From an uncultured Candidatus Saccharibacteria bacterium (GTDB lineage: Bacteria; Patescibacteriota; Minisyncoccia; Sungbacterales; SURF-37): 45,591 nucleotides of DNA. The position numbers and the translations under genes were made by a program. Below are positions 9,556 through 43,041 of the stretch, one piece after another. Under the pieces are notes generated by a model. It was not told the origin of the DNA, did no database searches, and saw nothing but the letters and a program-made list of their open reading frames with translations. The stretch's first letter is position 1; each line of letters opens with the position of its first letter. The DNA lies in the NCBI GenBank assembly GCA_964505815.1, contig CAZDKA010000002.1:1-45591 (forward strand). Direction: 5' to 3'.

Positions 9556-9560
9556 CCTAC

Positions 9561-9602
9561 AAAATACGTTTTAATATGCTATAGCATATTAAAACGTATT
9601 TT
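9561..9602. repeat. Palindrome family C, copy 1 (42-bp perfect palindrome)
   Basis: AAAATACGTTTTAATATGCTA|TAGCATATTAAAACGTATTTT checked base by base. Shares the AAAATACGTTTTA arm with 21527-21570. Confidence 0.9.
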
Positions 9603-11206: not shown

Positions 11207-11236
11207 TAAAAACTTACGCGATCGCGTAAGTTTTTA
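11207..11236. repeat. Palindrome family B, copy 1 (30-bp perfect palindrome)
   Basis: TAAAAACTTACGCGA|TCGCGTAAGTTTTTA. Same core as 42183-42210 and 42969-42994. Confidence 0.9.
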
Positions 11237-17880: not shown

Positions 17881-19722
17881 CTACTCCACAGTTACCGATT
17901 TTGCAAGATTACGGGGTTTATCTACGTCGTGACCACGAAGTACTCCAAAGTGATACGCGAAAAGCTGGAGCGGCACCACTGATAAAAGCGGAGTCAGCAT
18001 CTCAAGGGTTTTGGGAATGTAAATAACGTCATCAGCCAGCTCGCGGATCCGCTCGTCGCCTTCGGTGGCAACAGCAATGACCGGGCCCTTACGCGCCCGC
18101 ACTTCTTCGATATTGGAGACCATTTTTTCATACACCGAATCCTGCGGCGCAATAAATACCGACGGAAAATTTTCATCAATCATGGCAATCGGGCCGTGCT
18201 TCATCTCGCCCGCGCCGCATCCTTCAGCATGGACATAAGAAATTTCTTTCAATTTCAGCGCTCCCTCAAGGGCAACGGGCAGATTATATTTCCGGCCGAG
18301 ATACAGAAAGTTTTCATATTTTTGATATTTTTGAGCAAGCTGTTTTATTTGGTCGTTTTGCGCGAGGATTTTTTTCATAAGCGAGGGAACTTTCTTAAGC
18401 TCCTCGGCAATGCGCTCACCCATAACCAAGGACATCTCGCGCTGACGGCCAAGAAGCAGGGTGAGCAGAGTTAAAATAGCAACCTGGCTGGTAAAGGCCT
18501 TGGTGGAGGCAACACCGATTTCCGGGCCAATGTGCTGATACACTCCGGCATCGGTATCGCGGGCAATGGTTGAGCCAACGACATTGACGATGCCGAGGGT
18601 CAGCACTCCTTTTTCTTTGGCTTCACGAAGGGAGGCGAGGGTATCTGCGGTCTCCCCCGATTGCGAAATAGAGAGCACCACGTCGCCTTCGCGAAAAACC
18701 GGCTTCCTGTAGCGGAACTCCGAGGCAAGATCCACTTCCGTTGGGATGCCTGCATATTCCTCAAGCATGTATTCACCAACACGACCGGCAAGATATGCAG
18801 TGCCGCAAGCCGAAATCAAAACGCGCTTTGCGCTCTTGAGTTTTTCCAAAACTTCGGCGAGGCCGCCGATTTTGGCTAGTCCCCCTTCGGGGATGAGACG
18901 CCCCCGAATTGAATTCTCTATAGCTTCCGGCCCCTCCAAAATTTCCTTCAGCATGAAATGGGGATGGCCGCTTTTTTGAACAAGCTCCGCTGTCCACTCT
19001 ATTTCGTGAAGTTCCTTTTCGCGAATATTGCGGCCGAGGTCATACACCCGGTGCGAGTCAGAAGTAAGCACGGCCATTTCGCCATCATCAAGGTAGATGA
19101 CGTTTTTTGTATACTTAAGTAGCGGCGAGGCGTCCGAGGCAATAAAATATTCGCCGTTGCCCACGCCAAGGAGCAGCGGACTGAAATTTCGCGCCGCCAC
19201 CAATTTATGCGGCTCCCGAGAGTCGATCACCGCGAGACCGTAGGTGCCGCTGACCGACAACAATGCCAGCCGCGTTGCTTCTTCAATATCTAGTTCGGGA
19301 CTCTTCTTTTTAAACTCTTCAATTAAGTGGGCAAGCGTTTCGGTGTCGGTTTCGGAACGAAACGTGTGTCCGAGTTTCTCAAGGTCTTCTTTCAGTTGTT
19401 TATAGTTCTCAATGATGCCGTTATGCACGAGCCAGATATTCCCGGAGCAATCCGAATGAGGATGAGCATTCGTCTCGGTAACACCCCCGTGCGTTGCCCA
19501 GCGACTGTGGATAATGCCGGCCGTACCTGCAAATTCTTTGCCGCTTATTTTTTCTTCCAGCGCCGCAACCCTTCCAACCGCCTTTTCGCTTTTCACGTTG
19601 CCGTTTTTCGTCAGTACAGCAAATCCCGCCGAGTCATATCCTCGGTACTCTAAGTTTTTTATGCCATCCATTAGGATTGGCAAGGCCTTTTGTCTTCCGA
19701 TGTATCCTACAATGCCGCACAT
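17881..19722 (-). CDS. glmS: Glutamine--fructose-6-phosphate aminotransferase
   Basis: N-terminal MCGIVGYIG, two SIS-type regions, C-terminal NLAKSVTVE. Confidence 0.95.
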   Translation of the reverse strand: MCGIVGYIGRQKALPILMDGIKNLEYRGYDSAGFAVLTKNGNVKSEKAVGRVAALEEKISGKEFAGTAGIIHSRWATHGGVTETNAHPHSDCSGNIWLVHNGIIENYKQLKEDLEKLGHTFRSETDTETLAHLIEEFKKKSPELDIEEATRLALLSVSGTYGLAVIDSREPHKLVAARNFSPLLLGVGNGEYFIASDASPLLKYTKNVIYLDDGEMAVLTSDSHRVYDLGRNIREKELHEIEWTAELVQKSGHPHFMLKEILEGPEAIENSIRGRLIPEGGLAKIGGLAEVLEKLKSAKRVLISACGTAYLAGRVGEYMLEEYAGIPTEVDLASEFRYRKPVFREGDVVLSISQSGETADTLASLREAKEKGVLTLGIVNVVGSTIARDTDAGVYQHIGPEIGVASTKAFTSQVAILTLLTLLLGRQREMSLVMGERIAEELKKVPSLMKKILAQNDQIKQLAQKYQKYENFLYLGRKYNLPVALEGALKLKEISYVHAEGCGAGEMKHGPIAMIDENFPSVFIAPQDSVYEKMVSNIEEVRARKGPVIAVATEGDERIRELADDVIYIPKTLEMLTPLLSVVPLQLFAYHFGVLRGHDVDKPRNLAKSVTVE

Positions 19723-19785
19723 ACAAATTTTGCCCGCGAGAGCAAGTTACTTTGCAACGCAGCCCGAGCGGCTGCAAAATTTAGT

Positions 19786-19934
19786 ATCCCGCCCCAGTTT
19801 TACCATACCATGCTAATTTACGATGACAGTTGGAAAAAGTTTATTAACATTTTGCGACGCGCGTGTGCGAATAGCACAACCCTTATTGGGCGCAGCGCGT
19901 CGCTTAGGTGTCCTTTGTAAAACTGGGGCGGGAT
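19786..19934. repeat. Family D structured element, copy 1 (149 nt; candidate ncRNA or non-autonomous element)
   Basis: Perfect 18-bp outer inverted repeat ATCCCGCCCCAGTTTTAC (19786-19803) / GTAAAACTGGGGCGGGAT (19917-19934). Then a 50-nt variable part, the 50-nt core at 19854-19903 and a 13-nt tail. Confidence 0.85.
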
Positions 19935-19980
19935 GCCTTCCTTTGAAAGATTACGCAAAATTAGTGCGGGGTGCATCTTT

Positions 19981-21411: not shown

Positions 21412-21526
21412 GGCGCCTCCTTTTTGAAATGAACAAATGTGCCTTCAGCGTATAAAGATCTGTCTTTGCCGTCAACCACATAACTGCGGTTTTTGTTATG
21501 AGGTGGCTAGGCGGTGAGGGAATAAA

Positions 21527-21570
21527 CAAAATACGTTTTAGCAAGCGATAGCATGCTAAAACGTATTTTG
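21527..21570. repeat. Palindrome family C, copy 2 (17-bp stem, 10-nt loop)
   Basis: CAAAATACGTTTTAGCA (21527-21543) / TGCTAAAACGTATTTTG (21554-21570). Confidence 0.9.
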
Positions 21571-21599: not shown

Positions 21600-21680
21600 T
21601 TGACAACTTTTTGGCTCGGCGTATGCTTAATGCGTTCCTTAAAATCAGTACCACTTCTCACATAAAGGAGGGTCATCATA
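21600..21680 (+). promoter_or_regulatory. Promoter plus conserved leader of the secreted-protein family (copy P1)
   Basis: TTGACA at 21600-21605. Leader TTCCTTAAAATCAGTACCACTTCTCACATAAAGGAGGG is almost identical to 27637-27715 and partly shared with 43440-43515. Confidence 0.55.
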
Positions 21681-22067
21681 ATGAAACGATTTTTGGTGGC
21701 TTTTGCGGCTATCCTTGCGGTTTCTTCAGTGGCTTTCGCCCAGATCCCGACGCTGCCGGATTATGAAAAAGAAGCAAAACTTATTGGAACCGCAAAGTGC
21801 GACAACGGCGAGACGACCGTAACCGCCTACCGTAAAAGCGAAGACTACTTCGACTACTTCATAGAAGTTACACAAACAAAATCCGGCAACATGTTCTACC
21901 TTATGGGCACGGGCACGGGGCCACACTACTTCATGAAAGCCGCTGGCCAGCCGCAGGCAGAAGAAATGGATGCACAGTCCTGGAGTAAAGCAATTCAAGC
22001 CGAAGGCAACAGCCCGAATTTCTTGGCTTGGAGTCTTCTCCAAACGAGTGACTGTAAGGTGCTGTAA
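21681..22067 (+). CDS. Small secreted protein, LPDY(Q/E)K family, paralog P1
   Basis: Signal peptide MKRFLVAFAAILAVSSVAFA, then QIPTLPDYEKE and two conserved Cys (CDNGETT ... SDC). Paralogous to 27716.., 28124.. and 43065... Confidence 0.65.
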   Translation: MKRFLVAFAAILAVSSVAFAQIPTLPDYEKEAKLIGTAKCDNGETTVTAYRKSEDYFDYFIEVTQTKSGNMFYLMGTGTGPHYFMKAAGQPQAEEMDAQSWSKAIQAEGNSPNFLAWSLLQTSDCKVL

Positions 22068-26737: not shown

Positions 26738-26761
26738 GCGGGAACACGTTCCCGCTTTTTT
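26738..26761 (+). terminator. Rho-independent terminator
   Basis: GCGGGAAC-ac-GTTCCCGC followed by TTTTTT. Confidence 0.7.
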
Positions 26762-26763
26762 CG

Positions 26764-26814
26764 TTATTTGTCTAAATTTTCAAGCCGCCAGGCAGAGAAA
26801 ATTTAGACAAATAA
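26764..26814. repeat. Perfect 18-bp-stem hairpin (single copy in window)
   Basis: TTATTTGTCTAAATTTTC (26764-26781) / GAAAATTTAGACAAATAA (26797-26814), 15-nt loop. Confidence 0.85.
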
Positions 26815-26819
26815 CAGAA

Positions 26820-26966
26820 CCCCGCACTAATTTTGCCGTGGTGAAAACGGCTTTGCTTGAATTACATAATTGAATTATTGCGTGTGCGAGGCGCGTGCGC
26901 GGATAGCGCATCCCTCGGTGGGCGAAGCGCCTCGCTATAGTATATCTCGCAAAATTAGTGCTGGGG
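26820..26966. repeat. Family D structured element, copy 2 (147 nt)
   Basis: Outer arms CCCCGCACTAATTTTGC (26820-26836) / GCAAAATTAGTGCTGGGG (26949-26966, one bulged T). 49-nt variable part, core at 26886-26935, 13-nt tail. Confidence 0.85.
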
Positions 26967-26968
26967 TT

Positions 26969-27181
26969 TTACAAATCCTCAAACTCCTTATCTGAAATTC
27001 CAAGATTTCTGATAATACGATTGAGAATTTCTGGGCCGACATCCGCTCCGTGCGGATTTGGAATATACAACTTCACTCCGCCACAGCGCATAAATGGGTG
27101 TTTCGCGCCAGAAAAAGGGCCCGAACATCCGGCCCTTCTTAACTTCGCAATTAGTTTTCTGTAACTAACGGGTTTTGGCAT
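26969..27181 (-). CDS. hicA: HicA-like (YcfA family) toxin
   Basis: Start at MPKPVSYRKLIAKLRRAG (ATG 27181). GAKHPFM ... LYIPNPHGADVGPEILNRIIRNLGIS follows the HicA pattern. Confidence 0.65.
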   Translation of the reverse strand: MPKPVSYRKLIAKLRRAGCSGPFSGAKHPFMRCGGVKLYIPNPHGADVGPEILNRIIRNLGISDKEFEDL

Positions 27182-27636: not shown

Positions 27637-27715
27637 TTGACAACTTTTTGGCTAGGGCGTACGCTTAATGTGTTCCTTAAAATCAGTACCACTTCTTACA
27701 TAAAGGAGGGTCATA
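27637..27715 (+). promoter_or_regulatory. Promoter plus conserved leader of the secreted-protein family (copy P2)
   Basis: TTGACA at 27637-27642. The leader is nearly identical to 21600-21680. Confidence 0.55.
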
Positions 27716-28090
27716 ATGAAACGATTTTTCGCGGCTTTTGCAGCCGTTCTCGCGATTTCCAGCGCGGCTTTTGCCCAGGTCCCGACGCTTCCTGACTACC
27801 AAAAAGACGGCAAGCCAGATGAGGCTTACGTTTGCGACAATGGTCAGACAACCGCCAGATACTACTTGCATGATGATTGGAGCATCCTGGAAGTCAACAC
27901 TGCATCCGGTGACGTCCTTGTGGATATGGTAGGTCGAGGCGGTATGGGATTTTTCGTTAAACAGACCGGGGCCGACAAGATGCCTGCAGTCTCACACGAG
28001 GAGTGGGATACGGCCCTTTTGGAAAAGGCGCCGGCCGTCTACCACGCACTGCACGGCACTGGCCCATCAGACTGCGCGCCCAAGAAGTAA
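27716..28090 (+). CDS. Small secreted protein, LPDYQK family, paralog P2
   Basis: Signal peptide MKRFFAAFAAVLAISSAAFA, QVPTLPDYQKDGK, CDNGQTT ... PSDC. Confidence 0.65.
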   Translation: MKRFFAAFAAVLAISSAAFAQVPTLPDYQKDGKPDEAYVCDNGQTTARYYLHDDWSILEVNTASGDVLVDMVGRGGMGFFVKQTGADKMPAVSHEEWDTALLEKAPAVYHALHGTGPSDCAPKK

Positions 28091-30606: not shown

Positions 30607-30651
30607 TTCCAACCGCCAAAAAGCGGTTCTCACTGAAAGGGTAACAGTCAT

Positions 30652-30689
30652 TTTCCAAAGTAAATTGCTTAAGCAATTTACTTTGGAAA
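30652..30689. repeat. Palindrome family A, copy 2 (38-bp perfect palindrome)
   Basis: TTTCCAAAGTAAATTGCTT|AAGCAATTTACTTTGGAAA, 24 nt past the stop of 30714..31415. Confidence 0.9.
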
Positions 30690-30713
30690 TCTCCTTACTA
30701 TGAACCGGGGGAG

Positions 30714-31415
30714 TCAAACAAAAGCAAAATGTTTTCTTATGTCATCGTCATGCACAATATGATTCGTCTCAACTAATCGAACATACTCGCCAACGCCGTA
30801 AAGAGAGATAATAAACTCTAGTTCCTCATTGCAGGGATACGGAAACACGAAAACGCTCCTCTGAAGCGAATAAAAACCTATTGCTTTCAACTTTTCTCGA
30901 AATCCTTCACGCGCTGATTTGTGTGTATCAGGAATATCGAATACGACTATGCGCCATGTGCCGTCCCACAAATCCGGTCTCCGGATTATAAATGTGTTGT
31001 ATGCTCTTTGGATGGCTCGTTTTTCTCCTAACTTCGTAAGGCTAATTTCATATTCATTTTCATTTATCTTCGAAGCGGAAACAAAATTTTGTTTCTTAAG
31101 AACGGCGAGCTCGCGTTGAAAATACCCACTATGCATATATGTTCGATATATTCTTCTGCCGCGCATACGTCCGAAGGCGCTAAATATATTGGGGGCGGCA
31201 GCAGCAACAGTAAGCGCTCCAGCAACTAGAAGCAAGGCGAGAAGCCCCTTACCAAATGCAATGCCTCCCGCTTTTGCCGCACGAATCATATCTTCTCGTT
31301 TCGTTGCCTTTTCGGCTTCTGCCCATTCTTGCCGCATGTGCCTTATAAAAAACTCCCTGTGATCTAAAAGGCGTGGAATAATTTTCTTCTCGTATTTTCT
31401 CTTCGTACCAGTCAT
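30714..31415 (-). CDS. Membrane-anchored PaaX-like protein (winged helix plus Cas2-like central domain), paralog A
   Basis: TM segment GLLALLLVAGALTVAAAAPNIFSAFGR. Wing-like YEISLTKLGEKRA. WDGTWRIVVFDIPDTHKSAREGFREKLKAIGFYSLQRSVFVFPYP follows the PaaX/Cas2-like pattern. Paralog of 42235..42963. Confidence 0.6.
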   Translation of the reverse strand: MTGTKRKYEKKIIPRLLDHREFFIRHMRQEWAEAEKATKREDMIRAAKAGGIAFGKGLLALLLVAGALTVAAAAPNIFSAFGRMRGRRIYRTYMHSGYFQRELAVLKKQNFVSASKINENEYEISLTKLGEKRAIQRAYNTFIIRRPDLWDGTWRIVVFDIPDTHKSAREGFREKLKAIGFYSLQRSVFVFPYPCNEELEFIISLYGVGEYVRLVETNHIVHDDDIRKHFAFV

Positions 31416-31433
31416 CTTCTTTTTTTGTCATCC

Positions 31434-31467
31434 TCCAAACTAAATTGCTTAAGCAATTTAGTTTGGA
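31434..31467. repeat. Palindrome family A, copy 3 (34-bp perfect palindrome, symmetric variant)
   Basis: TCCAAACTAAATTGCTT|AAGCAATTTAGTTTGGA, 18 nt upstream of the ATG at 31415. Differs from copies 1 and 2 by a G>C change mirrored in both arms. Confidence 0.9.
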
Positions 31468-31531
31468 AATTAATCAATTATCCAATTATCCAGTATCCAG
31501 ATGCTGCTTCTATCAAACACCCTCCGCAAGG

Positions 31532-32590
31532 TTATCCGGCTCCGCCTCCGTACTGAAACACTCCACGTTTTTTTCGGTCAGTGTCCGTCAAAAACTCAAC
31601 CACGACGCTCGCCACAGGAACGGCAAGCAAAAGCCCGAGCACTCCGCCGAGCTTTCCGCCGATAAGAAGAGCGACGATAACCACAAGCGGATTCAAACCG
31701 ATGGTTCTCTTCATAACCGTGGGAACAATAAGATGACTCTCAATCTGCTGGATGACGAAGTAGGCGGCAATGACAATCGCGCCCAAAAGCGGGCTTTGCA
31801 CGAAAGCTATGACTACTGCCGGAATCGCGGCGATAATCGGGCCAATGACCGGAATAATCTCCAATGCCGCGGCCAGCACCGCAAAAATAAGAGCATAGCG
31901 AATGCCAAGAAGTGTCAACGTGATGTAGACAAGCACTCCGATAATGAGGCCGAGCAGCAGCTGCGCCCTGAGCCACTGGCCGAGCTTCAACTGCGCTCTC
32001 CCCCAGAGATCCACGGCATATTCTTCATACTCAAGCGGGGCAACCAGCCGCAGAAAGTTCTCAATCCCCCGCTCCTGGGTAGCAAGATAAAAAGAAATCA
32101 CGACGGTAATAAGCGCTACGGCAAGACCTCCGAAAATATCAGCGGTCAGTTGAAATGTGCTCTCGGCGATTCTTGACAACTGCTCGGGGGCGGTTACAAG
32201 AAGCTCCTGGCGATTGTCCAAAATCAGATTGTAAAGCGGAAGGCCGGTAAAAAACTGAATTTCGCGAAGAAGTTCCCGCTGATAAATCGGGTAAGACGAT
32301 ATGAAATTCTGGAGCTCGCCCGCGACCGCCGGCAGGACAAGATAAATAATGCCGACAAAAATAAGCGCGGCAATGACATAAATTATGAGCACGGCGACAA
32401 TCCGCGCGATGTGATACTTCCTCAACCACTGGATTATCGGATCAATGGCCGAGGCGATGACCACGGCGAAAAGCAGGGCGGCTAAAACCTGCAGTAGAAA
32501 ATATACGGCGGCAATCAGTATGAGCAGGCCGAAAAAGCGAAGAAAACTCGCGAAAGTGATATCTATTTTTTCGGGTTGTTTTGCGGGCAT
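31532..32590 (-). CDS. AI-2E family transporter (PerM/UPF0118)
   Basis: Polytopic membrane protein with the usual family layout. LEIIPVIGPIIAAIPAVVIA motif region. Confidence 0.8.
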   Translation of the reverse strand: MPAKQPEKIDITFASFLRFFGLLILIAAVYFLLQVLAALLFAVVIASAIDPIIQWLRKYHIARIVAVLIIYVIAALIFVGIIYLVLPAVAGELQNFISSYPIYQRELLREIQFFTGLPLYNLILDNRQELLVTAPEQLSRIAESTFQLTADIFGGLAVALITVVISFYLATQERGIENFLRLVAPLEYEEYAVDLWGRAQLKLGQWLRAQLLLGLIIGVLVYITLTLLGIRYALIFAVLAAALEIIPVIGPIIAAIPAVVIAFVQSPLLGAIVIAAYFVIQQIESHLIVPTVMKRTIGLNPLVVIVALLIGGKLGGVLGLLLAVPVASVVVEFLTDTDRKKRGVFQYGGGAG

Positions 32591-32592
32591 GC

Positions 32593-32648
32593 CAATGCGG
32601 TTAAAAATTTACGAGCCCAATGCGAAGTAAATTTTTACTACCGCATTG
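32593..32648. repeat. Two-segment hairpin abutting the transporter start codon
   Basis: CAATGCGG/CCGCATTG (8 bp) plus AAAAATTTAC/GTAAATTTTT (10 bp). Begins 3 nt from the ATG at 32590. Confidence 0.8.
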
Positions 32649-32650
32649 AG

Positions 32651-32800
32651 CATCCCTCTCCAATTTTGCCCTATAAAGAGATACGAAGCTATACTAACCC
32701 TTGACTTTACTAGTGTACGCGAGGCGCGTGCGCGAATAGCGCATCCCTCGACGGGCGAAGCGCCTCGCCGCGGCCTGCTTCGCAAAATTGGGGATGGGAT
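32651..32800. repeat. Family D structured element, copy 3 (150 nt)
   Basis: Outer arms CATCCCTCTCCAATTTTGC (32651-32669) / GCAAAATTGGGGATGGGAT (32782-32800), with one T-G pair and one mismatch. 49-nt variable part, core at 32719-32768, 13-nt tail. Confidence 0.85.
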
Positions 32801-32803
32801 AAA

Positions 32804-34072
32804 TTATATTTTTAATAATCCCTCAATCTCCTCGCGATCGCACTTAGGACCGAGCAGGGCCAGATTCAAACCGTCCTCTTTCATAATATCACGAGCAGCG
32901 GCCTGAATCTCGGCAGGGGTTACCGCGTCCAGTTTAGCAAATACCTCTTCGGGCGTCTGGGCCTTGCCGGTCAGAATTTCTTCGCCGCCGATAAAAGTGG
33001 CGAGTGTGGATGAGGACTCCAGCGCAATGAGCGTAGTTCCTTTAATGAAGTCGCGCGCCTTCTGCAGTTCCTTCTGCGAAACTGCCGTATCGCGAATCTT
33101 GGCGTACTCTTTTAGAATCGCGGCAATGGCTTTGTCCAGTTTCTCGTGGGGCACACCTGCGTATGTCGCCAAATAGCCGTAGCGGCTGTATTCATCAAAA
33201 CTCGTTGAGATGTGATAGGCAAGCCCGAGCTCCTCGCGAATTTCCAAAAACATTCTGGAACTCATGCCGCTGCCGAGAACTGCAGAAAGAAGCGAGGCCG
33301 CCCAGATTCTCGGGTCGTTTTTGCCGAAAGCGCGGAGACCCAGGATTAGATGCGTCTGGTCGGTGGAGCGCTCCTCGCAGATAAGTGCCGCCCCCTCCTG
33401 TTCTTCCACGACCTTGGGCTGAGACCTAGGCTTACCATCGCGGAGCGAAGCAAATGTTTCTTTTATTTTTTCAACAACTGCCTTTTCGTCTTTTATGTTT
33501 CCGGCGACGATGACCGCCGTATTTTCGGCAACGTACTGGGAATTAAAATAATCAACGAAATCGTCGCGCTTGAGCGCTCGGATGATATGTTCCTCGCCAA
33601 GCGTTTCCCAGCCAGCCGGCTGGTCGCCGTAGAGAAGCCGTTCCCAAAGATAGCTAACTCGGGAAGGGGGATCGTCATGACGCATGTGCATCTCTTCAAT
33701 AATTACGCCGCGCTCTCTTTCAATCTCGTTTTCGGGCAGGGTGGAGTTCAAAAAAATATCGGTGACCGCATCAAAGGCCTTATCAAAATACTGATAGCCG
33801 ACTTTGACAAAGTAACCTGTGTATTCATTGGAAGTGAAGGCGTTATATACGGCGCCGAGACCGTCAAGCTCGGTTGAAATCTCAACTTTTGACGGGCGTT
33901 TCACCGTTCCTTTGAAAAACATGTGCTCCAAAAAATGCGAGATGCCGTTAATCTCTCTGGTTTCGTGGTTTGAGCCGGTTCCGACAAAAATCAAAACGGT
34001 CACGGTGTTGGTCATGGGCATGGCGGCAGTAAGGACGCGTAGGCCGCTTGGAAGAATTGTTTTTTTGAACAT
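32804..34072 (-). CDS. M16-family zinc peptidase (insulinase/pitrilysin-like)
   Basis: Inverted zinc motif HFLEH in GISHFLEHMFFKGT, two-domain length. Confidence 0.85.
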   Translation of the reverse strand: MFKKTILPSGLRVLTAAMPMTNTVTVLIFVGTGSNHETREINGISHFLEHMFFKGTVKRPSKVEISTELDGLGAVYNAFTSNEYTGYFVKVGYQYFDKAFDAVTDIFLNSTLPENEIERERGVIIEEMHMRHDDPPSRVSYLWERLLYGDQPAGWETLGEEHIIRALKRDDFVDYFNSQYVAENTAVIVAGNIKDEKAVVEKIKETFASLRDGKPRSQPKVVEEQEGAALICEERSTDQTHLILGLRAFGKNDPRIWAASLLSAVLGSGMSSRMFLEIREELGLAYHISTSFDEYSRYGYLATYAGVPHEKLDKAIAAILKEYAKIRDTAVSQKELQKARDFIKGTTLIALESSSTLATFIGGEEILTGKAQTPEEVFAKLDAVTPAEIQAAARDIMKEDGLNLALLGPKCDREEIEGLLKI

Positions 34073-38008: not shown

Positions 38009-38593
38009 TTAAGCGAGATGCTCGGCAAAAAGACGCGATGTAACCTCATCAAGCCGTCTTACCTCGGAGGCCTCCCCGACGGTTGCAAATTCGGCGCATG
38101 GCAGGAGAAGGCATCTTGATGTTGGCTCGGAAAAAAGACCGAGTTCGTCAAGGAAGCGAGCGCGGAACCAAACGAGCCCTGCTTTCTGCTCCTCGGAGCC
38201 AAGTGTCGGGCCATTAAGCAGGTCCAGCATTTCTAAAGCTACAGCAAAAAAATTTCCGTTTTCTTCACGGCGATCCTCAAAAAGCGCGCTGCCTACGGCC
38301 CCAAATATTTCAGAAGCGGCCCTTAGTCGGAACGGATCGCTCTTGATTGCCGGGAAAAAATTAAGAAGCTCCGCGCCGACCAGACGGTAATTATTCCTTC
38401 CGGCAACAAATGAAAGCCGCGAAAGGGAAAGCGGTTCAAGATGACCCTTGAGTTTTGCTTCAACTTTGCGCGCTCCTTGGGCAATGAGCCGAATATTCAC
38501 AAATCGGTCGGTCAGCGCAGTAATCAAAAGATCGGCCTCGCCGAGTTCTTCTTTCCTGAGAATGATTGCGTCAGTTACGTGCATAGTGTTCAC
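38009..38593 (-). CDS. recO: DNA repair protein RecO (short form)
   Basis: AIILRKEELGEADLLITALT ... EPLSLSRLSFVAGRNNYRLVGAE matches the RecO OB-fold N-terminus. ATGA-type overlap with the ileS stop. Confidence 0.7.
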   Translation of the reverse strand: MNTMHVTDAIILRKEELGEADLLITALTDRFVNIRLIAQGARKVEAKLKGHLEPLSLSRLSFVAGRNNYRLVGAELLNFFPAIKSDPFRLRAASEIFGAVGSALFEDRREENGNFFAVALEMLDLLNGPTLGSEEQKAGLVWFRARFLDELGLFSEPTSRCLLLPCAEFATVGEASEVRRLDEVTSRLFAEHLA

Positions 38594-41500
38594 GCTCTAT
38601 CAATCCCTACCCAAAGCTCGTGGCCGTCAATAGAGAGCTCGCGCTCAACCGCAAACACTTTCTTGCCGCCGAGCGTAAAAATTTTGGCGCCGGTTTCTTT
38701 TTCAACAAATTTCTTAGAGCGCTCCAGCATCTTAAGCATCTCCGCGTCTCCCGCGGCCTGTAGTTTTATAGGGTGCTCTGGCCGAAGGCCCAGGTCTTTT
38801 CTCATCTCCTGGACATTCCGCACAAACTCTCTAAGCCATCCCTCTTCACGGAGTTCCGGGGTAATTTCGGTATCAAGCTCAACCTCGCCGGCTATTGTTT
38901 CGTCTCTTACGATTTCTTTCACGTTCACCTCGTCTCTAACTACATCCAACAACTCCTTGCTCAACGTTACACTCTTCACCTTAGCCGTCCTTAAGGGTTG
39001 ACGAACTTTTATTCCGTGCTTTGCGCGCTCGGCAAGGATGAGTGCTACAAGGGCGCGGGCTTCGTGCATCTCGTAGAATTCAAACTCTACCGCTTTGACT
39101 TGCGGCCACGGCCGGAGGTGCACACTATTTTCTTTCAGTCCAAATTTCGGTTTTAGTTCCTGATAAATAATCTCAGCAAGAAAAGGAGTAAAGGGCGCTA
39201 CAAGCTCCGCGAGACGAAGAAGAGCCCAACCGGTTATCGCCGCCGCTTCATCCTTGTCGGCCTTTGATGCTGGTTTCTGGAAGCGGCGGCGTGACCTACG
39301 CAAATACCAATTCGAGAAATCGTCTAGAAGGAACCCTTCCAAATGCCGGGCGGCACCAACAACGTCGTAGGCATCAAGAAGCTTTCCAACAAGATTGCTG
39401 TAATATTCAAGTCGCCCGACCAGCCAACGGTCAAGAACAGTCGTTGCTCTGTGCCGCTGAATTTTCTTTCTTGGCACCTTGTCCACGTATGTATCAAAAA
39501 GCACGAAGCTGTTCCAAAGTGTTGCCAGCGGCCCGCGCAGTTTATTCAAAAGGTCTTTCTCATCAAAACGCTTTGGCTCGCCCGGGGGATTCGCGGTGAA
39601 GAAATACCAGCGGATGGTGTCAGCGCCGTATTTCTTCATCATCTCCCACGGATCCACCACGTTGCCTTTGGACTTAGACATCTTCTGACCGTTTTTATCA
39701 AGAACATGCCCCAGGGAAATTACATGGCGAAAGGGCGCCCCTTTTTCAAGAAGAGTCGCGACGGCCAAAAGGGTATAAAACCAGCCGCGCGTCTGATCAA
39801 CGCCTTCGGCGATAAAGTCGGCCGGATACAATAATTTTTCTTTTTGATTTTTGATTTTTGATTTTTGATTTTGAGCCCAAGCGAATGGGTAATGAGCTTG
39901 GGCGAACGGCATCGCCCCCGAGTCAAACCAAACGTCTGCCACATCTTTAACCCTCTCCATCTTGCCGCCGCAGGCCTGCCCGCCGGAAAGGCCTGACTTA
40001 CAGATAAGCCGCACCTCGTCAATAAATGGCCGGTGCAGATTCACTTCGCCCGAGTTGTCGCGAGGCAAATTTAAAAATTTGATGGGCTGAACTCCGGCAA
40101 GGCCTATGTAATCCTCTTTTCTGCCGCGTAATTTTATGATGCCGTCGCGGTCGAGGCCTCGGGATGCGCCGTCCAAAATCCAAATCGGATACTCATGGCT
40201 TATGATAAGAATTTTTTTGTTGCGGTATTTCCGGTCAATGTCCTGCATGAAACCCATCAGGCGGGCTCTCAAGTCAGAAAGCGACTCTCCTTCCGGCGGG
40301 GCTTTCGCAAAATACTCCTCGGCCGAGGAATAAAAGCCGTTATACTCTTTTGTCGGCCGGCCGTTGAATATGCCTACATTAATTTCCCGAACCCTTGTGT
40401 CTTTCAAAACCTCTTTAACGCCCAAAACCTCGGCGACAATTCGTGCGGCCTCTGTGGTACGGAGAACATCGGAGTGAATGATGATATCAATATTTTCTTT
40501 TTTTAATTTTTCCGCGGCCAATCTGATCTGCTCTTTGCCTAGATCGGTCATGTGGTATTTTGAGTTCGAGTCCGCGACAATACCCAAGAGCTGGGTTTCT
40601 GACTCGCCGTGGCGCAGAGCAAAATAAGTGTTGCCGGAACTTTTTGCTCTTCCGGCAAGTTCCTCAAGCGAGCTCAACGCTTCAACTGCTTTACACTTAG
40701 TGCATTCCCATATGGGCAAAGGCGTTCCCCAGTAGCGCTCTCTGGAAAAAGCCCAGTCGCGAAGTTCCGAGAGAAATTCGCCGAAGCGTCCGTCTTTTAT
40801 ATGCTCCGGAACCCAGTCGATGGTCTGGTTATTTTTAATCAGTTCCTGTTTAATTTTCGTCATCCGCACCCACCATGAATTTCTCGCGTAATAAAGAAGC
40901 GGCGTTCCGCATCGCCAGCAATGGGGATATTCGTGTTCATACGGCAAAATAGCAAAGAGCAGTTTTCTTTTTTTTAGGTCTTCCACAATGACCTTGTCGG
41001 CCTCCTTAACGAACTTTCCCTCGCCTATAACTCCTTTTTTCATCCTGCCGTCAGGATCAACCGTCTCCAGTATCGGATAGTCGCCCGAGTATTCTTTTTT
41101 CATCGCCGCCATATCCTCTTCCCCGTATGCCGGAGCAAGATGCACGAAACCCGACCCTTCTTCGGTAGAAACAAAATCCGCTCCGTAAACGCGGTAAGGG
41201 GGCGCTACTGTTCCGTAGTCGGAAGCCGGGGCATAGAGCGGCTCGTATGAGAGGCCGACTAGCGCCTTGCCGGAAACTTTCTCGGTAATTTCCGGAGAGG
41301 CCCCTTTGGCATCATAGGGCGGAACATTTGCCGACCATACAAACTCGTTGCCGATTTTAAACTTGGTGTATTCCGTTGTCGGGTTAACGGCAACGGCGAC
41401 GTTGGCCGGAAGAGTCCAAGGCGTCGTGGTCCAGACCAGCAGCGATTCGTTTTTTCTGTCTTTGATTTTTAAGCGGACGAAAACTGAATCCTCCTTTACT

Positions 41501-42102
41501 TTTATATACGCTCCGGGCTGGCCAAGTTCGTGCGAAGAAAGGCCGGTCTGGCACCTGGGGCACCACGGAATGATTTTAAAATCCTTATAAAGGAGACCTT
41601 TCTTCCAAATTTCTTTAATAATCCACCAGAGAGTTTCGATATAACTCGTCTCATAGGTAATATATGGATGCTCTAGATCAAGCCAAAAACCGATTCGCTT
41701 GGTCAAGCGCTCCCACTCTTCTTTAAAACGCCATACCGACTCGCGGCACTTCTCGTTGAACTCAGCAATACCGTAATGTTCAATGTCTTTTTTTGTCTTT
41801 AGGCCGAGTTCCTTTTCAACTTGAAGTTCCACCGGCAGACCATGCGTGTCCCAGCCGGCTTTTCTCAAAACCTGAAAACCGCGCATGGTCTTGTAGCGCG
41901 GAATTATGTCCTTGAAAGCTCGCGACTCAACATGGTGAATGCCAGGCGCGGCGTTAGCCGTCGGCGGCCCCTCATAAAAAATAAACGGCTTGCCCCGCTT
42001 GGTTTTTTGCAGGCTCTTCTCGAAAATCCTCTCCCGCTCCCAGAATTCAAGAATTTTTTGCTCTCTTCCAGGGAGATTGAATACCTGTTTCTTTTGCATC
42101 AT
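38590..42102 (-). CDS. ileS: Isoleucyl-tRNA synthetase (1170 aa) carrying an inserted domain
   Basis: PPTANAAPGIHHV (HIGH), WTTTPWTLPAN, CWRCGTP, KMSKSKGNVV, DQTRGWFYT. Confidence 0.95.
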   Translation of the reverse strand: MMQKKQVFNLPGREQKILEFWERERIFEKSLQKTKRGKPFIFYEGPPTANAAPGIHHVESRAFKDIIPRYKTMRGFQVLRKAGWDTHGLPVELQVEKELGLKTKKDIEHYGIAEFNEKCRESVWRFKEEWERLTKRIGFWLDLEHPYITYETSYIETLWWIIKEIWKKGLLYKDFKIIPWCPRCQTGLSSHELGQPGAYIKVKEDSVFVRLKIKDRKNESLLVWTTTPWTLPANVAVAVNPTTEYTKFKIGNEFVWSANVPPYDAKGASPEITEKVSGKALVGLSYEPLYAPASDYGTVAPPYRVYGADFVSTEEGSGFVHLAPAYGEEDMAAMKKEYSGDYPILETVDPDGRMKKGVIGEGKFVKEADKVIVEDLKKRKLLFAILPYEHEYPHCWRCGTPLLYYARNSWWVRMTKIKQELIKNNQTIDWVPEHIKDGRFGEFLSELRDWAFSRERYWGTPLPIWECTKCKAVEALSSLEELAGRAKSSGNTYFALRHGESETQLLGIVADSNSKYHMTDLGKEQIRLAAEKLKKENIDIIIHSDVLRTTEAARIVAEVLGVKEVLKDTRVREINVGIFNGRPTKEYNGFYSSAEEYFAKAPPEGESLSDLRARLMGFMQDIDRKYRNKKILIISHEYPIWILDGASRGLDRDGIIKLRGRKEDYIGLAGVQPIKFLNLPRDNSGEVNLHRPFIDEVRLICKSGLSGGQACGGKMERVKDVADVWFDSGAMPFAQAHYPFAWAQNQKSKIKNQKEKLLYPADFIAEGVDQTRGWFYTLLAVATLLEKGAPFRHVISLGHVLDKNGQKMSKSKGNVVDPWEMMKKYGADTIRWYFFTANPPGEPKRFDEKDLLNKLRGPLATLWNSFVLFDTYVDKVPRKKIQRHRATTVLDRWLVGRLEYYSNLVGKLLDAYDVVGAARHLEGFLLDDFSNWYLRRSRRRFQKPASKADKDEAAAITGWALLRLAELVAPFTPFLAEIIYQELKPKFGLKENSVHLRPWPQVKAVEFEFYEMHEARALVALILAERAKHGIKVRQPLRTAKVKSVTLSKELLDVVRDEVNVKEIVRDETIAGEVELDTEITPELREEGWLREFVRNVQEMRKDLGLRPEHPIKLQAAGDAEMLKMLERSKKFVEKETGAKIFTLGGKKVFAVERELSIDGHELWVGIDRA
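40063..40638 (-). other. Histidine-phosphatase (phosphoglycerate-mutase-like) domain inserted inside ileS
   Basis: Residues ~489-680: YFALRHGESETQ (RHG motif), HSDVLRTTEAA, ILIISHEYPI (second His). They lie between WECTKCKAVE and NLHRPFIDEV. Confidence 0.7.
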
Positions 42103-42182
42103 CTGTATTCTACGATGTTTTAGTGTTAAATCAAAGAAAGACGAATTTACATATCCCGCCCCATCCTATCCATCCCTACTGC

Positions 42183-42210
42183 AAAAACTTACGCGATCGC
42201 GTAAGTTTTT
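42183..42210. repeat. Palindrome family B, copy 2 (28-bp perfect palindrome)
   Basis: AAAAACTTACGCGA|TCGCGTAAGTTTTT, 24 nt past the stop of 42235..42963. Confidence 0.9.
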
Positions 42211-42234
42211 ACAGATACCAAATTGTAATTGTAA

Positions 42235-42963
42235 TCACTTCTTTAGGCCAAAAAATTCTTTGAGATCATCGTCGAAGTTGATGACTCTCGTCTCTACGTA
42301 GCGAAGATGGCCGCCCAGGTCGTACAGCCTCCTCAAAAACTCAATTTCCTCCCTACACGGATACGGAAAAACGAAGGTGCTTTTTTGAAGAGGGCAAAAG
42401 CCCATATTCTTTAGACATCGCCGCAGGCCATCCCTAGCCCATTTATCCCCCTCCGGGACATCAAAAAACACCAACCGCCAGATGCCGTCCCATTTTTCTG
42501 GGCGCAGAACTTTTAAGCCCCAAAACGCCCGTTTCGCTAACTGCTCTTGACCTAACTTGGTAAGCCGAACTTCCCTTGTTTCGTCTTCGGTCTTTACGAC
42601 GCTCACATAACCTCGCCGTTTGAAATAAGTTATTTTATTTTCAAAATCTTTCCGATGAAAATAGCGCCTGTGCTTGCCGAGCCGGCCAAACGCCGAAAAG
42701 ATGTTTGGCGCAACCGCACCCACTATCAAAATCCCGCACACCGCAGCCATACCTAAAATAGTAAGCCCCAAAACCGTTCCGGTTTCTTTCAGCGTTTCGC
42801 GCCGTCTGAGTTTACGCGCGTCTCTTTCAACCAATCTTTCCGCCTCCTCCCATTCTCTTTTAAGATGTTCAACGATAAAACGGCGGTTTTCCCGATTCTT
42901 AACTGCCCGTTTCACGAGTTTACTCTCATATCCTCTTTTAAAAATCTTCTTTCCTGTCCCCAT
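42235..42963 (-). CDS. Membrane-anchored PaaX-like protein (winged helix plus Cas2-like central domain), paralog B
   Basis: Start at MGTGKKIFKRGYE (ATG 42963). The 16 upstream codons of the track ORF are the palindrome itself. APNIFSAFGR and WDGIWRLVFFDVPEGDKWARDGLRRCLKNMGFCPLQKSTFVFPYP. Confidence 0.6.
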   Translation of the reverse strand: MGTGKKIFKRGYESKLVKRAVKNRENRRFIVEHLKREWEEAERLVERDARKLRRRETLKETGTVLGLTILGMAAVCGILIVGAVAPNIFSAFGRLGKHRRYFHRKDFENKITYFKRRGYVSVVKTEDETREVRLTKLGQEQLAKRAFWGLKVLRPEKWDGIWRLVFFDVPEGDKWARDGLRRCLKNMGFCPLQKSTFVFPYPCREEIEFLRRLYDLGGHLRYVETRVINFDDDLKEFFGLKK

Positions 42964-42968
42964 AGTTA

Positions 42969-42994
42969 AAAACTTACGCGATCGCGTAAGTTTT
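42969..42994. repeat. Palindrome family B, copy 3 (26-bp perfect core)
   Basis: AAAACTTACGCGA|TCGCGTAAGTTTT, ending 5 nt from the ATG at 42963. Confidence 0.9.
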
Positions 42995-43013
42995 AACAAG
43001 AGTGAAAACATAG

Positions 43014-43041
43014 GAATAAAAAAAGGCGGGATTACTCCCGC
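43014..43041 (-). terminator. Rho-independent terminator after paralog P4
   Basis: GCGGGA-gtaa-TCCCGC on the minus strand, followed by CTTTTTTT. Confidence 0.65.

Follow-up and report, generated by a model that had tools for sequence, protein, structure and literature searches.

What are the three copies of a roughly 150-nt element that lie between the housekeeping genes of one CPR contig: genes for a small RNA, pieces of mobile DNA or signals that serve their neighbours? We analysed a stretch of 45,591 nucleotides, called the window throughout, for which an earlier note made from the letters alone had claimed three copies in a single orientation. All three are present where that note had placed them, each on the + strand and each built in the same order, which we call layout A.

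19786–19934, + strand: copy 1, layout A, 73.3 bits with the covariance model of the core; left arm 19786–19803, spacer (50 nt) 19804–19853, three-way-junction core 19854–19903, linker (13 nt) 19904–19916, right arm 19917–19934.
26818–26968, + strand: copy 2, layout A, 76.6 bits with the core model; left arm 26818–26836, spacer 26837–26885, core 26886–26935, linker 26936–26948, right arm 26949–26968.
32652–32800, + strand: copy 3, layout A, 80.7 bits with the core model; left arm 32652–32669, spacer 32670–32718, core 32719–32768, linker 32769–32781, right arm 32782–32800.

Anatomy and distribution of the family

The arms of the window copies measure 18–20 nt, their spacers 49–50 nt with ∼38% G+C, and their cores 50 nt with 67% G+C. 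A 20-nt core pattern occurs three times in the window, where shuffles predict 0.03 occurrences, and the covariance model of the core returns exactly these three copies from the window, at 73–81 bits. The predicted fold of each copy consists of an outer helix and a three-way junction, with z-scores from −4.1 to −6.9. All three copies are intergenic and sit among housekeeping genes, at spacings of 7.0 and 5.8 kb with genes in between, which excludes a CRISPR array. Copy 1 is flanked by glmS and a methyltransferase gene, copy 2 by a small ORF and a HicA/HicB pair, and copy 3 by genes for an AI-2E transporter and an M16 peptidase. The right arm of copy 2 directly adjoins the HicA-like gene's stop codon at 26969, and copy 3 is 3 nt away from that of the M16 peptidase gene. 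Other genes around the copies encode TatD and aminoacyl-tRNA synthetases, and the best relatives of the window GlmS are named Candidatus Sungbacteria/Sungiibacteriota, which places the window in a Sungbacteria-like CPR genome.

The window copies are members of a modular hairpin family of ∼130–155 nt that occurs across CPR (Patescibacteria) lineages and is apparently undescribed. The element is real, statistically solid and structured; the fixed architecture and three-way junction seen in three copies by the earlier note become stronger still with 45–70 sequences. The terminal helix of 17–20 bp has the form ACCCCGC-N5-ATTTTGC / GCAAAAT-N5-GCGGGGT. In the family the left arm reads A(A)CCCCGC-N5-ATTTTGC and the right arm is its complement, with outer and inner ends conserved and a middle that covaries; the left arm is pyrimidine-rich, the right arm purine-rich, and neither contains an internal palindrome. 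The outer arms of the window copies had been described as different in sequence, but they share the consensus A(C/T)CCC-N-C-N3-A-N-TTTT-R-C. The related picture of variable ends around a conserved interior, the opposite of a MITE, is right about the interior and overstated for the ends, where the arm consensus is kept across phyla.

The 50-nt core is a three-way junction of P1 (9 bp), P2 (5–6 bp, capped by a GAAUA pentaloop) and P3 (2–3 bp), with the fixed junction bases G, U and CGAA. The unpaired junction bases and those of the GAAUA loop are invariant across the family, while the stems covary: the distal half of P1 shows 4–5 different pair types, and P2 variants such as TTGCC-GAATA-GGCAA (locus L069) and TGGC-AAATA-GCCA (locus L050) keep both pairing and loop. 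Two layouts are found. In layout A (n=47, window copies included) an arm is followed by a spacer of 47–56 nt, the core, a linker of 12–15 nt and the second arm; in layout B (n=19) the order is arm, linker of 13–16 nt, core, spacer of 39–55 nt, arm. Spacer (47–56 nt) and linker (12–15 nt) lengths are maintained across phyla, and the spacer sequence is not conserved: spacers are unrelated except among paralogues within one genome or copies on the same contig. A rare short form has only ∼13 nt on either side of the core, as at L050, a site orthologous to that of copy 1, and the tandemly duplicated L069 variant carries a second, inverted P2-like hairpin in place of the spacer. No conserved reading frame runs through the element. 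The open stretches vary in frame and extent among copies, and one frame always ends at the TAG of the GAATAG loop, so that a small ORF is excluded.

A spacer of this kind beside an invariant scaffold could be read as a guide-type RNA, with junction and helix as the scaffold and the ∼50-nt free sequence of fixed length as a programmable guide specific to each copy. The tight spacer length and the different spacers of the three window copies are what this reading has in its favor. We regard it as very improbable, because the spacers match only their own paralogues or orthologues when compared with the window and with related loci totalling ∼570 kb, there is no consistent neighbour of the nuclease, recombinase or modification-enzyme type, the short form at L050 dispenses with the spacer, and the spacer may stand on either side of the scaffold.

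The species scan compared the core pattern with one genome per species (185,579 representatives) and returned 47 loci, in 26 of which the whole core is present (27 copies, 18 MAGs). All carriers of the whole core are CPR or unclassified MAGs, and the groups represented are Saccharibacteria, Parcubacteria, and Kaiser-, Ryan- and Sungiibacteriota. The same scan gave high-GC matches (Massilia, Nonomuraea and others) in which the rest of the core is missing; these were set aside as chance. A metagenome scan added 54 further loci from groundwater and sediment. Pattern and covariance-model searches together, with duplicates removed, give about 66 distinct full elements; the core model finds the window trio plus a small number of further, diverged copies in the loci. 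The exact pattern occurs 1–4 times per genome in the species scan, and many matches sit at contig ends, as is usual for repeats. This patchy distribution, with the exact pattern in 18 genomes among 185,579 representatives, is more in keeping with a mobile element than with an essential RNA.

The core pattern was not found in viral contigs, and blastn against phage and plasmid collections gave no match. Rfam 15, which was searched with its self-cleaving ribozymes, Y RNA, 6S, SRP, riboswitches and HEARO/omega RNAs, returned nothing for the whole window at gathering score and nothing for 32600–32850 at E≤10 with permissive filters. No known repeat, IS end or Rfam family corresponds to the element, a point on which the earlier note had asked to be checked. 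A keyword and sequence search of the literature produced nothing similar or relevant. ARAGORN found no tRNA or tmRNA in the window, and the junction has only two hairpins, whose loops are of 5 nt and 5–6 nt.

Covariation and the folding strand

Both paired changes that had been reported for copy 1 are present, G:C to C:G in P1 and C:G to T:A in P2, and the wider family extends them. The core alignment (27 sequences) has 97.6% of its cells paired; both sides change in 7 of 17 pairs, and the covariation score is reached by 0/500 shuffles. The full-length alignment of 45 sequences has 93.6% of cells paired and 22 of 36 pairs that change on both sides, including 14 of the 18 pairs of the outer helix; it contains 116 compensatory cells, and 0/500 shuffles reach any of five measures. 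The further copies on which the earlier note had staked its case therefore covary strongly. Slid-partner controls on the same alignment bring pairing down to 33–50%, and RNAalifold, run unguided, predicts the same helices. We note that P3 is weak, with 2–3 bp and little variation.

The changes that affect only one side of a pair are not distributed evenly. In the outer helix of the 45-sequence alignment, UG changes number 6+5+5+5 against 1+1 for GU, with very few A.C, and anchored arm comparisons count TG 23 and GT 4 versus AC 6 and CA 7, the AC and CA cases lying mostly outside the true stem. The T-G pairs noted earlier in copy 3 are indeed there, and copy 2 has one as well, as a G-T pair or bulge. 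Of 70 cores, 55 close P2 with G.U and 6 with G-C. Since the one-sided changes are nearly all 5′ U / 3′ G, the + strand is the strand selected for folding; each U.G change on this strand is a C.A mismatch on the opposite one. A mutational artefact was rejected as the source of the bias, because the bias is strongest where the mutation pressure that we would expect runs the opposite way: it stands at 19 vs 4 where both neighbour genes lie on the other strand.

The fold of the + strand is under selection, most likely as RNA to judge from the sequence pattern, although wobble alone cannot separate RNA from single-stranded DNA. G.T pairs are tolerated in single-stranded DNA too. Of the claim that such pairs fit only plus-strand RNA, the folding strand is thus borne out by a family-wide bias, and the word "only" is not. 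A functional RNA fits best because it accounts for the invariant unpaired bases, the covarying stems, the strand-specific wobble and a spacer that is held in length and free in sequence. Such an RNA would be a discrete molecule of ∼150 nt whose ends are paired by the outer helix, and its invariant junction and loop may be where a conserved protein or RNA of CPR bacteria docks. A 40-nt junction that is near-identical from Saccharibacteria to Parcubacteria, together with the covariation, would imply a conserved partner in these minimal genomes, be it a protein, an RNA or an enzyme responsible for moving the element.

Genomic surroundings and expression signals

The unit turns out to be larger than first drawn. 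An A/T-rich palindrome with near-perfect arms, here HP1, stands before each copy, and a conserved extra right arm follows copy 1.

19725–19782, no strand assigned: HP1 palindrome of copy 1, AAATTTTGCC, 38-nt apex, TGCAAAATTT.
26763–26815, no strand assigned: HP1 palindrome of copy 2, perfect 19-bp arms GTTATTTGTCTAAATTTTC / GAAAATTTAGACAAATAAC, 15-nt apex.
32592–32648, no strand assigned: HP1 palindrome of copy 3, nested arms CCAATGCGGT...ACCGCATTG and TAAAAATTTAC...GTAAATTTTTA, apex GAGCCCAATGCGAA.
19955–19972, + strand: solo right arm, GCAAAATTAGTGCGGGGT, 20 nt past copy 1.

The HP1 of copy 1 begins 2 nt from the start codon of glmS (19720–19722, − strand) and that of copy 3 begins 1 nt from the start codon (32588–32590) of the divergent AI-2E transporter gene; the HP1 of copy 2 follows a terminator-like hairpin of the preceding gene (26738–26755). 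Mismatches in HP1 arms are few and show no wobble asymmetry (4 vs 4). Parcubacteria-type loci have a conserved HP1 apex, GAGC-N-GCGAA, and Saccharibacteria-type loci have a different upstream unit that contains GGATGAATGGC. The solo arm recurs at the orthologous L050 locus with 17/18 identity and is partly complementary to 19713–19735, a segment that includes the glmS start codon.

All four gene contexts are represented among the elements. The commonest is antisense to both neighbours (21 of 67), the next arrangements numbering 10 each, and this mixture of all orientations, mostly antisense to both neighbours, is odd for an expressed RNA gene. Five loci (Sungbacteria, Saccharibacteria, Kaiserbacteria and others) have the element divergent from glmS and just upstream of it, and three have it between rpsM and rpsK; such constant places point to long residence and count for the RNA reading. 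Clustering of 119 flanking proteins from 66 elements, in which a partner gene was sought, gave only housekeeping recurrences: glmS, rpsM, rpsK and pth.

The closeness of these genes raises the alternative that the element is a cis-acting intergenic RNA or DNA module of the ERIC, BIME or Correia type with no independent life. The long hairpin would then be co-transcribed with its neighbours and would stabilise mRNAs, process them through RNase III or insulate them, and the upstream palindrome would be a promoter or terminator of the adjacent genes. In many loci, copies 2 and 3 included, the right arm comes within 0–7 nt of the convergent gene's stop codon, and in many loci HP1 takes in the start codon of the divergent gene or lies 0–3 nt from it. 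Some copies stand inside operons (rpsM-rpsK; KH protein-trmD), the near-perfect palindromes with their 4 vs 4 wobble fit a symmetric signal at the DNA level, and the solo arm is able to pair with the glmS start-codon region. Against these observations, the commonest gene context would have the C.A-mismatch strand co-transcribed, yet it is there that the wobble bias is strongest, and a stabiliser or terminator needs neither a 40-nt junction that is invariant across phyla nor a spacer of fixed length. With no U-tract after the element and elements in all four contexts, we consider a purely cis-acting role rather unlikely.

As for the small RNA that we favor, it may be made from a promoter in the A/T-rich upstream palindrome, or released from longer transcripts through processing at the long helix. 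No sigma-70-like −10 or −35 was found at a fixed distance from the left arm; TAnnn[AT] at 6–7 nt before the left arm is weakly enriched, in at most ∼30% of copies. Each window copy has one promoter-like match on the + strand within the spacer, but the spacer as promoter was rejected because no −10-like hexamer recurs at any fixed offset across 44+16 elements. Terminator-like hairpins downstream of the element number 6/66 on its own strand and 5/66 on the opposite strand. In two of three Saccharibacteria-type loci scanned, + strand terminator-like hairpins bracket the unit, an arrangement like that of a transcription unit, the exception being locus L018. The element is not itself an intrinsic terminator: the outer helix encloses at least 110 nt, and none was flagged at the 3′ end of any window copy. 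The lack of a fixed-distance promoter, the few downstream terminators (6/66) and the patchy distribution all count against the RNA reading.

The frame as a module, duplication and known systems

The arms are not confined to the junction RNA. At locus L080 a tRNA-Arg(TCG) is enclosed by arms CCCCGCCCTTTCTTTT...GAAGGAAAGGGCGGGG, again with T.G wobbles; the arms lengthen the acceptor stem of the tRNA by 16 bp, and a like palindrome stands upstream. A frame that houses a genuine RNA gene speaks for the RNA reading. The tRNA-Val of locus L099 has an unrelated leader-trailer helix of 22 bp. These are the only two with a long flanking helix among 19 tRNAs whose flanks were compared, a set that leaves out about six tRNAs found later. 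In at least seven loci family arms enclose non-conserved interiors of 64–70 nt, and matching arm pairs in the ∼570 kb of CPR DNA searched are only ∼65, 100–140 or 220–290 nt apart or come from two neighbouring copies. With the same arms around other interiors, a tRNA included, the frame is a module of its own that acts like a duplicating repeat, and the arbitrary ∼65-nt interiors indicate that arms can persist without the conserved junction.

Copying is visible within genomes. One Saccharibacteria MAG contains three copies with spacers and arms that are 84–92% identical and flanks that differ, and the element is absent before glmS in a relative whose GlmS is 87% identical. Such observations could reflect a non-autonomous mobile DNA that acts as a single-stranded hairpin of the + strand, in the manner of REPIN/REP-RAYT, an IS200/IS605 derivative or attC. 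A HUH-type or other recombinase encoded elsewhere would then bind the junction, and arm pairing would serve excision and integration. The element is multi-copy, intergenic and patchy, and is near-identical across phyla, which suggests horizontal spread; the copies in one genome share the whole hairpin with its spacer and not the flanks, the glmS site is empty in the relative just mentioned, and a solo arm exists. The unrelated interiors of 64–70 nt framed by the same arms also agree with it, and arm spacings of that order are reported for Pseudomonas REPINs. Multi-copy loci mostly maintain one orientation, and DNA hairpins are compatible with the G.T wobble.

Other results point away from mobile DNA. 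The 45-kb window has no gene for a transposase, HUH protein, reverse transcriptase or integrase, no partner gene recurs beside the 66 elements, and no RAYT gene was seen in the window or among the recurrent neighbours. Arms around a gene-sized insert were not found in ∼570 kb of CPR DNA. No target-site duplication was detected, shared flank words being no longer than in shuffled controls. (Nested palindromes account for the few GCCAT repeats at the flanks.) The folding strand is usually opposite to the neighbour genes and so is presumably the leading-strand template, whereas IS200/IS605-type elements use the lagging-strand template. Finally, the position beside glmS is constant in very distant lineages, and the exact pattern is limited to 1–4 per genome. 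We therefore hold mobile DNA of this kind to be possible but unlikely.

Patchiness, duplication of the whole hairpin, reuse of the frame with other cargo and free orientation are what a REPIN- or ERIC-like repeat would lead one to expect, and they stand beside the RNA-like features described above. Because both sets of features are present, we term it a low-copy, duplicating small-RNA element. We give even odds to a small RNA of low copy number that duplicates and has paired ends and a putative protein-binding junction. Its family would have grown by duplication or transposition of the whole hairpin, and the result would be a low-copy mobile small-RNA gene. A broader proposal is that the hairpin frame is a general CPR cassette that carries, expresses or processes, and moves small stable RNAs (the junction RNA, a tRNA, other cargo), the junction RNA being an ancient CPR-specific RNP component or a new catalytic or ligand-binding RNA whose copy specificity is given by the spacer. 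In this full form we find it improbable.

A large part of bacterial diversity belongs to the CPR, whose members are nearly all uncultured and from which very few non-coding RNAs have been described. As an RNA, the element would found a new orphan class with a testable structure and offer a handle on its protein partner. As mobile single-stranded DNA, it would give CPR its first described REPIN-like system and would mark gene flow among CPR phyla.

The closest analogies appear to be REPINs, ERIC, stable RNAs of the Y-RNA kind and leader-trailer processing helices. REPIN/REP-RAYT systems of Pseudomonas and E. coli are likewise intergenic, multi-copy and of low mobility; two inverted arms tens of nt apart form one long hairpin with matched arm changes, and REPINs also occur in mosaic clusters with other palindromes. 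Unlike REPINs, the element has arms that do not form REP hairpins bearing a 5′ GTAG, no RAYT turned up in the window or among the recurrent neighbours, the interior is a three-way junction invariant across phyla, the wobble pattern points to one strand, and copies number 1–4 per genome. ERIC/IRU of enterobacteria resembles the element in being conserved across genera and in lying in intergenic DNA in either orientation; it is an imperfect palindrome of ∼127 bp with size variants from internal insertions, lies in transcribed DNA and presumably acts at the RNA level. ERIC has no sequence relation to the element, however, is a simple hairpin without a conserved multi-helix junction, and is limited to one order, whereas the family spans CPR classes.

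Two DNA-level systems are more distant. Integron attC sites share imperfect inverted repeats between genes and a conservation of structure above sequence, and they are recognised as a folded single strand. The element differs from them in having no R″/R′ core sites (RYYYAAC/GTTRRRY), its ends being ACCCCGC...GCGGGGT and its inner sequences TTTTGC/GCAAAA; no integrase gene lies in the window, the element stands beside core housekeeping genes rather than cassettes, and attC has no conserved interior. MITEs such as Correia and Nezha are similar in size (130–155 bp), in being intergenic and non-coding, and in having terminal inverted repeats with a family consensus (∼66 copies here). In contrast to MITEs, the element shows no target-site duplication, no parent IS with the same ends was found in the window or in ∼570 kb of CPR DNA, its arms covary within each copy, and its interior is more conserved than its ends.

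Among stable RNAs, Y RNA/YrlA, 6S and SRP RNA have a comparable long terminal helix of 5′ and 3′ ends and a conserved internal module of the protein-binding type. The element differs in having no Rfam match, no Ro-binding motif and no linked rsr gene in the window, and in being scattered among housekeeping genes in any orientation. Y RNAs, like the element, have several paralogues per genome, and YrlA has a tRNA-like domain where the frame of the element holds a real tRNA. Leader-trailer helices of rRNA and tRNA, which are RNase III substrates, differ in that only 2/19 compared tRNAs have one, and in that P1 of the element is not coaxial with the frame, 13 and 50 nt intervening. The likeness is in the flanking helix itself, of 16–22 bp, as around the L080 tRNA-Arg and the L099 tRNA-Val, and a tRNA gene in the same frame raises the question of how small RNAs are made or moved in CPR cells.

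Elements with other interiors and a copy beside a 16S rRNA gene

Among the loci from CPR MAGs and groundwater or sediment metagenomes, several carry elements whose interiors depart from that of the junction element, and one has an element beside a 16S rRNA gene.

L048, 16104-16203: sibling element of ~100 nt
L025, 192-294: sibling element of ~100 nt
L020, 6782-6887: sibling element of ~100 nt
L035, 2666-2768: sibling element of ~100 nt
L061, about 987-1087, - strand: sibling element of ~100 nt
L083, - strand: sibling element of ~100 nt
L069, 3731-4048: variant element, two tandem copies
L076, 1640-1890: element and palindrome, directly upstream of the 5' end of a 16S rRNA gene, divergent

The siblings possess arms and an upstream palindrome of the same type as the junction elements, and these arms enclose unconserved interiors of 64-70 nt without the three-way junction. 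In the L069 variant, the spacer gives way to an additional, inverted hairpin that resembles P2 and has the GAATA loop. In the first core, both sides of P2 have changed together and read TTGCC/GGCAA. The element-palindrome unit beside the 16S rRNA gene has CTCATTGGA on either side.

tRNA genes inside long helices

L080, 560-760: tRNA-Arg(TCG), at 617-690, in the hairpin frame CCCCGC...TTTTGC / GC.AAGG...GCGGGG
L099, 4905-5040, - strand: tRNA-Val with a 22-bp leader-trailer helix, CCCAGCTTGCCCTCCCACCTTT / AAAGTGGAAGGGTGAAGCAGGG

The element-type frame of L080 lengthens the acceptor stem of the tRNA-Arg(TCG) by 16 bp, and the unit is flanked on both sides by palindromes of the HP1 type (the A/T-rich palindrome directly upstream of each element), here in inverted orientation. 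The tRNA-Val helix bears no relation to the element frame. Enclosure of tRNAs in long precursor helices may recur among CPR bacteria.

A solitary arm at glmS and other features of the window

19955-19972: solo right arm 3' of copy 1
19713-19735: stretch partly complementary to the solo arm

This arm, which is kept in the orthologous place of L050, is partly complementary to a stretch that takes in the start codon of glmS together with the preceding bases; if transcription of glmS began far upstream, the pairing would sequester the AUG.

30714-31415: gene with a PaaX_M (Cas2-like) domain; palindrome copies at 30647-30690 and 31427-31470
42235-43011: gene with a PaaX_M (Cas2-like) domain; palindrome copies at 42182-42239 and 42967-43024
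11207-11236, 42182-42211, 42967-42996, 9559-9602, 21526-21569: perfect A/T-armed palindromes with GC-rich centres, several families

The near-perfect palindromes that bracket each PaaX_M gene, assigned to families D4 and D1 in a repeat scan, could be operators, terminators or the ends of mobile units. The D1 centre is GCGATCGC. We note that the A/T-armed palindromes of the window, which look like bidirectional terminators, share the build of the HP1 units adjoining the elements.

21618-21679 and 27656-27717: 62-nt leader ending in AAGGAGG, two copies
38590-42102, - strand: class I aminoacyl-tRNA synthetase (Ile/Val/Leu type), 1170 aa

The leader copies are 94% identical and lie upstream of two paralogous small genes (21681-22067 and 27716-28090) with signal-peptide-like starts, the coding parts of which are only about 79% identical; the leader may be a conserved cis-regulatory one. 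The synthetase contains a histidine-phosphatase (His_Phos_1) domain insertion at residues 496-651.
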